Shown here one piece after another: positions 7,331 through 8,977 of a stretch of 64,000 nucleotides of DNA. A program made the position numbers and the translations under genes. Each line of letters opens with the position of its first letter. The first letter of the stretch is position 1. Where the stretch lies: positions 1,312,001 to 1,376,000 of the forward strand of contig CAVUDW010000003.1 of NCBI GenBank assembly GCA_963740355.1. The letters are read 5' to 3'. The DNA is from an uncultured Gemmatimonadaceae bacterium. GTDB lineage: Bacteria > Gemmatimonadota > Gemmatimonadetes > Gemmatimonadales > Gemmatimonadaceae. The notes beneath the pieces are model-generated. The model did no database searches and was not told where the DNA came from. It was given only the letters and a program-made list of their open reading frames with translations.

Positions 7331-7545
7331 CTGACCTGCAAACTGCATAACGCAGAACCGAACAGCCGCAGAACAGAACAGCCGCTGAACAGCAACAGCA
7401 ACAGCAAACTTCAAACTGCCTGGACGCAAAACAGCAAGGGCGGATACTGCAACAGCCGCCAAACTGCACACCGCCGCAAAACGGGCACTGCAAAACGGTT
7501 ACTGCAAAACGGCCACTGCAAAACGCAGAGTAGCTGTGTTGAAAG

Positions 7546-8481
7546 TCAAGCCGTGGCGGGCGTGGGGGTCCGCCACGGTGTTTGCGTTTTGACCATCGCG
7601 TTGAGGATGGTGAGGAGGCGGCGGAGGCACGCGATCTTGGCGACTTTGGTGGGCTTCCCGGCGGCGCGCAGCGCCGCGTAGACGGGCTTGAGGACCGGAT
7701 TCCATTGTGTGGCCACATGGGTGGCCATGTAGAGGATCGAGCGAATCGTTGCCCGCCCGCCCCAGCACACGCGGGCACCGCGGAATTGCCCGGATTCCTG
7801 CGCGAGCGGCGCGACGCCCACGAGCGCGGCAATGGCGCGCCGATTCAGCGTCCCCAATTCGGGCAACAGGGCGACCAAGTACCGTGCGCTCTGCTGGCCG
7901 ATGCCCGGCACGCTCGTCAGGAGCGTCACCTGCGCTTGCCAGGCCGCATTCCGTTCGATCAGTTCGCCGATCTCATTGTCGATGTCACGCAGCGCCTCGG
8001 CGAGCGCCTCCAACGTCCCGCGCACATTCGTCGCCACGCGCGCGGTCGCGACGTGCAGGCGATTCTTCTCCATCGTCTGCATCGTGACCAACTGCCGGCG
8101 CCGTTCCACCAAGGCCGCCAGCGCCTGCTGCTCCGCGTCGGCGAGCGGCCGGACGGGTGGGGCGAGCACGGCGCCAAACCGCGCCAGGATGCGCGCATCC
8201 ACGCGATCCGTCTTCGCCAACTGGCCGGTGCTGCGCGCGAACTCGCGCACCTGCCGCGGATTGACGACCGCGACGGGGATCCCGGCGCCGGTGAGCGCGC
8301 CGGCGACGGCGCGATGATACGTGCCCGTCGCTTCCAGCACGACCAAGGTCGGCGGCTGCGCGGTGAGCGCGGTGACGAAGGCGTCGATGTCCGCCGCCGT
8401 ATTGCGGAGCTGCGTCACCGCACCGTCGTGGACCGCCACATCCAAGTGGGCCTTGCTGACATCAATGCCGAGATACGTCAT
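7546..8481 (-). CDS. IS110-family DEDD recombinase/transposase
   Basis: [23 protein letters not shown] (DEDD tetrad), SVPGIG, and [10 protein letters not shown] carrying the catalytic Ser. GGAGG RBS before ATG 8481. Confidence 0.96.
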
Positions 8482-8489
8482 ACTGCCTC

Positions 8490-8660
8490 CAGGTGACGAC
8501 CGCGCGCGCCCTGCCTTGCGAGATGCGGGATCGCGTCGGCGTCCCTGGTAGCTGTCCGGGCTTGTAGCGATCGGGACGACGGCGCTCTGACTCTGCGACG
8601 GGCTCACGGCGCCCGGGGCGCTCCGAACGAGCTGCCGCCGTCCCGGAGATTTAGCTTCTG
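8490..8660 (-). ncRNA. Putative bridge RNA of the IS110 element (ends approximate)
   Basis: Two stem/internal-loop domains. Loop segments CGCAGAG and GCGCC match the target. ACAGCTAC and GCAAG match the donor junction. Confidence 0.8.
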
Positions 8661-8977
8661 TGCGAGGAGACATACAAGGCGCAGAGGCGCAGAGGGCTCT
8701 TCGTTAATAGCAGCCAATCGATACCATATCAGGACAAAAGGCTTTGGGAACTGCTCTCGCAGTTGCAGTTCCCAAAGCCCTCGTTTGCCCCTCGATGCGC
8801 GACGATGCATGCTGGCGCGGTAGAACCCTCTGCGCCTCTGCGTCTCTGCGTTTCGCCTTCGCAGTTGCTGTTCTGCGGCTGTTCTGTTCTGCGGCTGTTG
8901 CAGTATCGCAGTTTTCTGTTCTGCGTTAAAGCAGTTTGCAGTTTGTAGTTTGCAGTTGCAAAGCAGAATTGGAGAGA

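Follow-up and report, generated by a model that had tools for sequence, protein, structure and literature searches.

The window analysed here, the whole stretch of 64,000 nucleotides taken from contig CAVUDW010000003.1 of an uncultured Gemmatimonadaceae bacterium, contains a 1148-bp insertion sequence (IS) of the IS110 family at positions 7531-8678, with its recombinase gene on the minus strand. The element is very probably an IS110-group IS, formed by a DEDD/Ser recombinase and a left-end bridge RNA, that was inserted by RNA-guided site-specific recombination. The evidence comes from the copies of the element in the genome, from the candidate guides in its left end and from the covariation of these guides with insertion sites in relatives.

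The genome searched comprises 5.45 Mb in 5 contigs with 65% G+C. BLAST of window 7531-8678 against this genome identified seven copies, all exactly 1148 bp long, five of them at 100% identity, one at 98.2% and one at 96.2%; these limits include the CT core a single time, at the left (8678) end. The only long real gene is that of the recombinase (7546-8481, minus strand, 311 amino acids), and its reading frame is intact in 7/7 copies. Two Pfam domains were identified, DEDD_Tnp_IS110 (PF01548, 1.3e-26) and Transposase_20 (PF02371, 2.1e-15), both exceeding the curated cut-offs. Among solved structures, phmmer matched residues 2-303 to ISCro4 (9t56, 1.2e-35, residues 3-303), which was the best match, and to IS621 (8wt6, 5.8e-33). 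The motifs GID, EAT, KTDxxDA and ESG align with identical ISCro4 residues, these being D7, E50, D92, D95 and S230. By motif order they would be equivalent to the catalytic residues D11, E60, D102, D105 and S241 given for IS621 in excerpts of PMC11208158.

At its ends the element has non-coding stretches of 197 nucleotides ahead of the ATG and 15 nucleotides beyond the stop codon. This long left and short right end is the layout of the IS110 group, whereas the IS1111 group has the reverse one. The ends read CTTGTATG... and ...CACAGCTA, terminal inverted repeats are absent, and every test of IS110-group membership that could be run on the element came out positive. The element is intact and recently active.

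In the orientation of the IS, all copies read ...GCGC | CTTGTATG...CACAGCTA | CTCTGCG(T/A)T. The target GCGC|CT|CTGCG is present in 7/7 copies with a single orientation of the element relative to the motif, and the target duplication is limited to the 2-bp CT core, as both junctions repeat CT alone in all seven. The initial annotation had placed the IS precisely within CGCAGAG repeats, with only AG shared by the junctions. Both statements hold: CT (AG on the plus strand) is the sole sequence common to both junctions, and the flanks of the seven genomic copies carry GCGC upstream and CTCTGCG downstream, none of them lacking CT-CTGCG. Similarity between copies stops at the element ends, and the flanks differ beyond the motif. 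An additional CTCTGCG unit was identified upstream in six copies, while in the seventh an IS3-like element lies at a distance of 7 bp.

Within the window, the right target half (core CT plus CTGCG in the sense of the IS) lies at 7524-7530 on the minus strand and is the outermost CGCAGAG unit of the left array. The span 8679-8695, also on the minus strand, holds the left target half (GCGC, 8679-8682) and the other two CGCAGAG units of the array. Deletion of 7531-8678 in silico joins ...ACTGCAAAACGCAGAG to GCGCAGAGGCGCAGAGGG, that is, ACTGCAAAACGCAGAG-GCGCAGAG-GCGCAGAGGG, and so restores an array like the uninterrupted arm at 33931-33966, which is ACTGCAAAACGCAGAGACGCAGAGACGCAGAGGGG, or ACTGCAAAACGCAGAG-ACGCAGAG-ACGCAGAGGGG, with its CGCAGAG array at 33942-33964. 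A looser copy of the arm begins at 58428, as the initial annotation had also indicated.

An allele without the IS, which that annotation had suggested looking for, was identified in one metagenome. Words of the locus recur in eleven public runs, each stored as contigs and none of them listed as an RNA run, and four (X1-X4) were examined. A contig of run X2 (326 nucleotides, depth 2.6) matches 7486-7530 (2 mismatches) and then, after six additional letters, 8677-8730 (1 mismatch), joining 7530 to 8677 with no IS between them; it is the array without the IS plus one more 8-bp unit. Because the spacer 8696-8742 is unique in this genome, the contig represents the same locus in a related strain. 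A second X2 contig has the right end of the IS beside a different flank, again ending in ...AAAACGCAGAG. These contigs are direct but thin support for insertion.

The left non-coding end (IS nucleotides 1-197, window 8482-8678, minus strand) is identified as the bridge RNA from its guide matches, its RNAalifold consensus and the few differences among copies. All guides are on the minus strand. The left target guide, GCGCCC at IS nucleotides 58-63 (8616-8621), would have a register in which it equals the left target GCGC plus the first core base, its last base mismatching the core T. The right target guide, CGCAGAG at nucleotides 82-88 (8591-8597), is reverse-complementary to core CT plus CTGCG. 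The left donor guide, ACAGCUAC (ACAGCTAC) at nucleotides 124-131 (8548-8555), is identical over 8 nucleotides to ACAGCTA, the right-end terminus, followed by the first core base. The right donor guide is probably AUCUCGCAAG at nucleotides 155-164, where CAAG (161-164) would pair with CTTG of the core and left end; together with a candidate handshake guide GC (165-166) it occupies 8513-8524. A second candidate handshake guide, UC at nucleotides 89-90 of the target loop (8589-8590), was placed by position from IS621. U89 may pair with the last donor base (A) before the core, and G165-C166 may pair with the target G and C just left of it.

The bridge RNA pairing rules applied are those described for IS621 in excerpts of PMC11208160. 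In IS621 the left target guide is at 50-58, the right target guide at 77-80, the left donor guide at 123-130, the right donor guide at 157-158 and 162-165, and the handshake guides at 81-82 and 166-167 (PMC11208158, likewise in excerpt). The guides identified here lie within 1-8 nucleotides of these positions. The left donor guide is conserved among relatives with the same element end, and the GCAAGG block of the right donor guide is kept in 15/16 aligned relatives. Another candidate for the right donor guide, UACAAG at IS nucleotides 113-118, is a perfect complement of CTTGTA and was rejected, relatives with the same end having UCGAAG, CAGAAG or UCAGAG there.

The RNAalifold consensus of 16 left ends contains two internal loops, each between a basal stem and a distal hairpin, and comprises 24 pairs, 12 of them with compensatory changes. 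The left-end RNA is under constraint: although the left end accounts for 17% of the element length, only 1 of 65 differences in the two diverged genomic copies falls there.

The closest relative in representative genomes has a recombinase 60% identical in protein. A total of 80 loci were fetched with the recombinase protein and 51 could be parsed into 46 unique element/site pairs; the other 29, with no CTTGTA or end motif or with too short a flank, are outside the counts. A perfect 7-nucleotide match of the expected guide was identified in the own left end of 38 of the 46 pairs, which are not independent of each other and include one match (L079) in a non-homologous place. For a stricter comparison of the 7-nucleotide right target guide with the insertion site, 22 representatives were taken by our own choice, one per apparent family of parsed loci and with the gammaproteobacterial group (38-40% identity) excluded. 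Among them the cognate match was present in 19/22 and matches in non-cognate pairings in 3/452. The cognate 7-mer is always directly 3' of a conserved ..CCG(U). It is this covariation with insertion sites across relatives that makes the guide matches count as evidence.

Related elements in congeners have the same ends and are broken at contig ends. In congener G009 the sites are ..GCGC|CT|TTGCGT and ..GCGC|CT|TTGCGTTGA, the guide column is ACGCAAAG (CGCAAAG) and the left target guide is GCGCCC. In congener G017 the sites are TCCGCC|CT|ATCGA and TCCGCC|CT|ATCGACCC, with guide columns UCCGCCC and UCGAUAG. In the Gemmatimonadaceae genome whose recombinase is 60% identical (L001-L003), the guide is still CGCAGAG and the targets are G(Y)G(N)C|CT|CTG(C/T)GGT. 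A single G-to-A guide change tracks CTCTGCG versus CTTTGCG targets in two congeners, and the guide of each species' IS agrees with the dominant unit of its host, CGCAGAG in this genome and CGCAAAG in G009.

Two further observations concern the relatives. The IS of G017 (L111-L117) targets another multi-copy sequence, ...CTCTCCGGCCTCCCCGCC|CT|ATCGACCCAA..., and it breaks the assembly at no fewer than 7 contig ends. Three loci of a Dehalococcoidia chromosome (L040, L041 and L044, OX638345.1) have 2-6 tandem 15-nucleotide units (ATGACCACTGGGACA-like) just after the recombinase ATG, giving a variable N-terminal repeat of the recombinase.

According to the proposed mechanism, the target loop would read GCGC-CT-CTGCG, the 7-nucleotide CGCAGAG pairing with the core and right target and GCGCC matching the left target and first core base. 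The sequence read by the donor loop would be ACAGCTA-CT-TGTAT, formed where the ends meet in the excised circle. Recombination at the CT core, with no duplication, would then leave the element between the outermost and the next unit of the 8-bp CGCAGAGN array. The arrays, arranged as inverted pairs around hairpins in many intergenic regions, would offer dozens of harmless landing sites. A circular intermediate, with transcription of the RNA from a promoter at the circle junction, is predicted on the model of IS621; among the contigs of runs X1-X4, no joint of the circle ends was listed. The right end (7531-7549, minus strand) comprises the 15 nucleotides past the stop codon and a -35-like TTGACT at 7544-7549 that overlaps the stop codon; when the ends are joined in silico, TTGACT lies 17 bp upstream of TATGTC (8669-8674). 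In circles of IS621 a promoter across the joined ends drives the RNA, with the -35 box in the right end (PMC11208160, in excerpt).

Several points weigh against this account. The left target guide is short, with four nucleotides plus one core base, the second core position is C and not U, and its register shifts by one column relative to relatives. No bridge-RNA family was identified in an Rfam scan of 7300-9000 at E up to 1, whose only output was four chance matches below threshold (to two miRNA families, a CRISPR repeat and a riboswitch). Since Rfam has no matching model, membership of the RNA rests on our own alignment. The -10-like hexamer at the joined ends fits TATAAT weakly, at only 3/6 positions. 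The empty-site allele is known from a single contig of 326 nucleotides at depth 2.6, with one unit beyond the simple reconstruction.

A further adverse point concerns site choice. The genome contains 39 perfect GCGCCTCTGCG sites including the occupied ones and 32 unoccupied, 3 of the latter being the unit that adjoins an inserted IS and about 10 lying outside repeats, a number near the composition-only expectation by a rough estimate. Both unoccupied sites of the initial annotation, 8832-8842 and 34113-34123, were recovered, at C3:1320832 and C3:1346113 with a window offset of 1312000, the second (plus strand) as the outermost unit of another repeat element, between the LGT and DEAD-box helicase genes. 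An outermost unit of an array can be followed by TT, for example, and an inner one by TCTCTGCG. The site is followed by [TA]T, as in the outermost unit, in 7/7 occupied cases against 9/32 unoccupied perfect 11-mers, a preference with a hypergeometric probability of about 7e-4 (own arithmetic). Base pairing alone is insufficient to explain this choice, which is narrower than 11-nucleotide pairing predicts, and no extension of the guides or other pairing was found that accounts for it. An extension of the right target guide past 7 nucleotides was considered and rejected, the next RNA bases, U and G, being unpaired by eye with the T/A and T after the site. There is no consistent bias of replication strand: two copies are on contig C2, with positive GC skew throughout, and five on contig C3, with negative skew throughout, all on the contig minus strand.

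The use of outermost units only would be expected if the recombinase found its site by protein-DNA or DNA-structure recognition of the repeat, as was formerly supposed for REP-targeting IS, the complementary stretches in the left end being merely subterminal repeats of the element, and an additional structural layer of target recognition is proposed for ISPpu10 in the excerpted preprint 10.64898/2026.03.19.712850. This explanation does not foresee that the guide column changes with the site (the 19/22 cognate against 3/452 non-cognate matches), nor that one G-to-A change in the guide fits the CTCTGCG and CTTTGCG targets of two congeners, and it is considered improbable. A structural layer could supplement RNA guidance but cannot replace it.

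Even less probable is insertion of low specificity followed by purging, where only the copies in harmless repeats survive selection. An unrelated IS3-like element does share these places, since its four full copies with inspected flanks are all within arms of the same repeat elements, at different positions. However, all seven IS110 copies interrupt one 11-mer sequence at a single, identical nucleotide and with one orientation relative to it, a single-base precision that selection cannot give; the roughly ten perfect 11-mers that are unoccupied outside repeats are too few to argue either way. Spread of the copies by duplication or homologous recombination of larger segments bearing the IS, instead of independent insertions, is the least probable of all. 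In its favour, two IS110 copies adjoin the same IS3-like element, and one IS3 copy (C2:13835) shares extra flank with another locus. Nevertheless, BLAST identity ends exactly at the 1148-bp limits in 7/7 copies and the flanks are unrelated beyond 8-20 nucleotides of array.

The host repeat is formed by short arrays in a polar arrangement. The window has 19 occurrences of the double unit CGCAGAGGCGCAGAG (up to 2 mismatches), where shuffled sequence would give 0.68, and the genome contains 142 arrays of 2-4 units of CGCNRAG. Pairs of arrays in the order CGCAGAG ... CTCTGCG with a gap of 40-500 bp (median 213) number 39, and those in the opposite order 0. Many pairs enclose a conserved hairpin, TTTGGGAAC...GTTCCCAAA. 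The window contains two such elements, both between convergent Pfam-supported genes: Oxidored_FMN / Peptidase_M28 and LGT / DEAD-box helicase.

In the first of these, which carries the IS, the left arm (7331-7530, plus strand) begins right after the Oxidored_FMN stop codon and comprises short tandem arrays, including one of 14 bp x 3.6 at 7476-7525. The central hairpin, TTTGGGAACTGC...GCAGTTCCCAAA (8743-8776, no strand assigned; C3:1320743-1320776), is terminator-like and lies between the convergent genes; at least 10 other loci have similar hairpins, in most cases flanked by an array on either side. The right arm (8828-8977, plus strand) contains the CTCTGCG array at 8828-8850, with the unoccupied site 8832-8842, and then short tandem arrays to the end of the Peptidase_M28 gene. 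Beyond the 8-bp arrays, the arms are other short tandem repeats that extend to the stop codons. In 7331-7530, 8784-8977, 33860-33941 and 34124-34190 these have periods of 6, 7, 14, 16 and 18 and abound in GCAG/CTGC. On the sense strand of either convergent neighbour gene they contain little T, so that both 3' untranslated regions would bear the same kind of sequence before the hairpin.

The 14-bp array had been described initially as a tandem expansion beside the IS. The repeat exists (3.6 copies with 88% matches by Tandem Repeats Finder) but its link to the IS is not supported: outside the IS the two arms hold 7 short tandem arrays in all, of which it is one. It belongs to the arms rather than to the insertion, because six more arrays are there and the empty-site contig keeps the 14-bp one.

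A larger and more G+C-rich variant of the array theme is present at 14630-15110. At 14630-14750 there are direct repeats, about 70 bp long, in which CGCGGAG units lie; a CTCCGCG array in inverted orientation comes next, at 14950-14982, and then a run of GGAACGGCGC(G/T)G(A/G)G repeats at 15030-15110.

The exact double unit was identified in 13 of 19 congeners and, with 1-2 matches each, in 2 of 21 searched genomes of other genera; the repeat is largely confined to this genus. The units themselves differ between species: double units of CGCAGAG and CGCAAAG are 45 and 2 here, and 0 and 69 in G009. At the orthologous Oxidored_FMN/M28 locus, congeners G019 and G012 lack the element, with no more than 26-35 bp in its place, and G017 has a shorter one; frame calls at this locus in five other genomes are unreliable. 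Of the features of a miniature inverted-repeat transposable element, neither sharp ends nor a duplication are readable at the orthologous locus, where the genomes are about 73% identical.

The genome has two RAYT-like Y1_Tnp genes, and these are flanked by GATCAAGGGGTCAGAGATCTTGATCGG and CCGGTGACAGTGCAC repeats, with no CGCAGAG arrays there. As other repeats flank the RAYT-like genes, the repeat described here is not a classical repetitive extragenic palindromic (REP) sequence, in agreement with the unrelated repeat class of the initial annotation. Each of the two genes (C2:1530613-1530939 and C3:374781-375101; L131 and L132) lies between inverted copies of a REP family of its own, these families being GATCAAGGGGTCAGAGATCTTGATCGG, repeated several times in tandem, and CCGGTGACAGTGCAC. 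No description of the array repeat was found in the literature searched: none of four 15-mers of the array is present there, and the papers retrieved on Gemmatimonadetes intergenic palindromic repeats concern other repeats or subjects, as judged by title and the start of the abstract.

It is tentatively proposed, with rather less than even confidence, that the host repeat is an undescribed intergenic element with no link to RAYT, gained and lost at loci and with its unit turning over genome-wide between congeners, and that the resident IS110 follows by single-base guide changes. If true, this would be a natural case of a guide being retuned to a multi-copy target that drifts. As for the arrays themselves, a host protein or RNA may bind them, or they may have arisen by some unknown copying process.

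Among known systems, the closest in mechanism is IS621 of Escherichia coli, also of the IS110 group, an analogy made initially that is upheld at this level by left-end guides that match target and donor and covary with sites in relatives. According to the excerpts of PMC11208160 and PMC11208158, both have a DEDD and Ser recombinase, a CT core, a left-end bridge RNA with guides in nearly the same positions, the same donor form (ACAG...-CT-TGTAT), a -35 box in the right end and insertion in a multi-copy intergenic repeat, that of IS621 in REPs being reported by Choi et al. 2003, as cited in PMC11208160. Differences are the right target guide, 7 nucleotides here and 4 in IS621; the left target guide, about 5 here and 9 in IS621; the target, an 8-bp tandem array flanking hairpins here and a REP palindrome in IS621; and the host, which here belongs to Gemmatimonadales. 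ISCro4 is similar in the recombinase, where the catalytic motifs align.

ISPpu9 and ISPpu10 of Pseudomonas putida also have several identical copies, all in one intergenic repeat (PMC12288879, PMC8450116 and 10.64898/2026.03.19.712850, in excerpt); there the repeats are REP sequences of P. putida, whereas both repeat and host are different here. The repeat itself resembles REPs and bacterial interspersed mosaic elements (BIMEs) with RAYT in being multi-copy, intergenic, palindromic overall, placed at gene 3' ends and variable at orthologous loci, and REP/BIME sequences are likewise used as IS landing sites (Tobes and Pareja 2006; PMC1525189, in excerpt). In contrast to a palindrome of 20-40 nucleotides, it is a polar pair of 8-bp arrays with long tandem-repeat arms around a hairpin.

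IS110-family elements in multi-copy intergenic repeats are well known, and their RNA-guided mechanism has been established since 2024. Landing at one exact spot of a motif is an ordinary habit of the family, although the type of repeat is not previously described as far as found. For the IS itself little is new, this being a Gemmatimonadales member with a bridge RNA, a long (7-nucleotide) right and a short left target guide. Three features are less ordinary: the preference for outermost units, which bears on extra layers of specificity in bridge recombinases; the way in which the guide is retuned from species to species, where sister species offer a clean natural example of joint change in guide and target; and the repeat element, a landing pad that serves two unrelated IS families and is itself unexplained.

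The second of these families is represented by the IS3-like element, of about 1273 bp, which contains two overlapping open reading frames of 154 and 237 amino acids, the latter with rve integrase domains. Five BLAST matches were obtained. The four full copies are located outside the window at C2:320522-321794, C3:1515724-1516995, C2:152030-153303 and C3:603059-604331, two of them close to an IS110 copy, at 7 bp and about 160 bp. Extra flank is common to the fifth match (C2:13835, 96%) and the C2:320360 locus.

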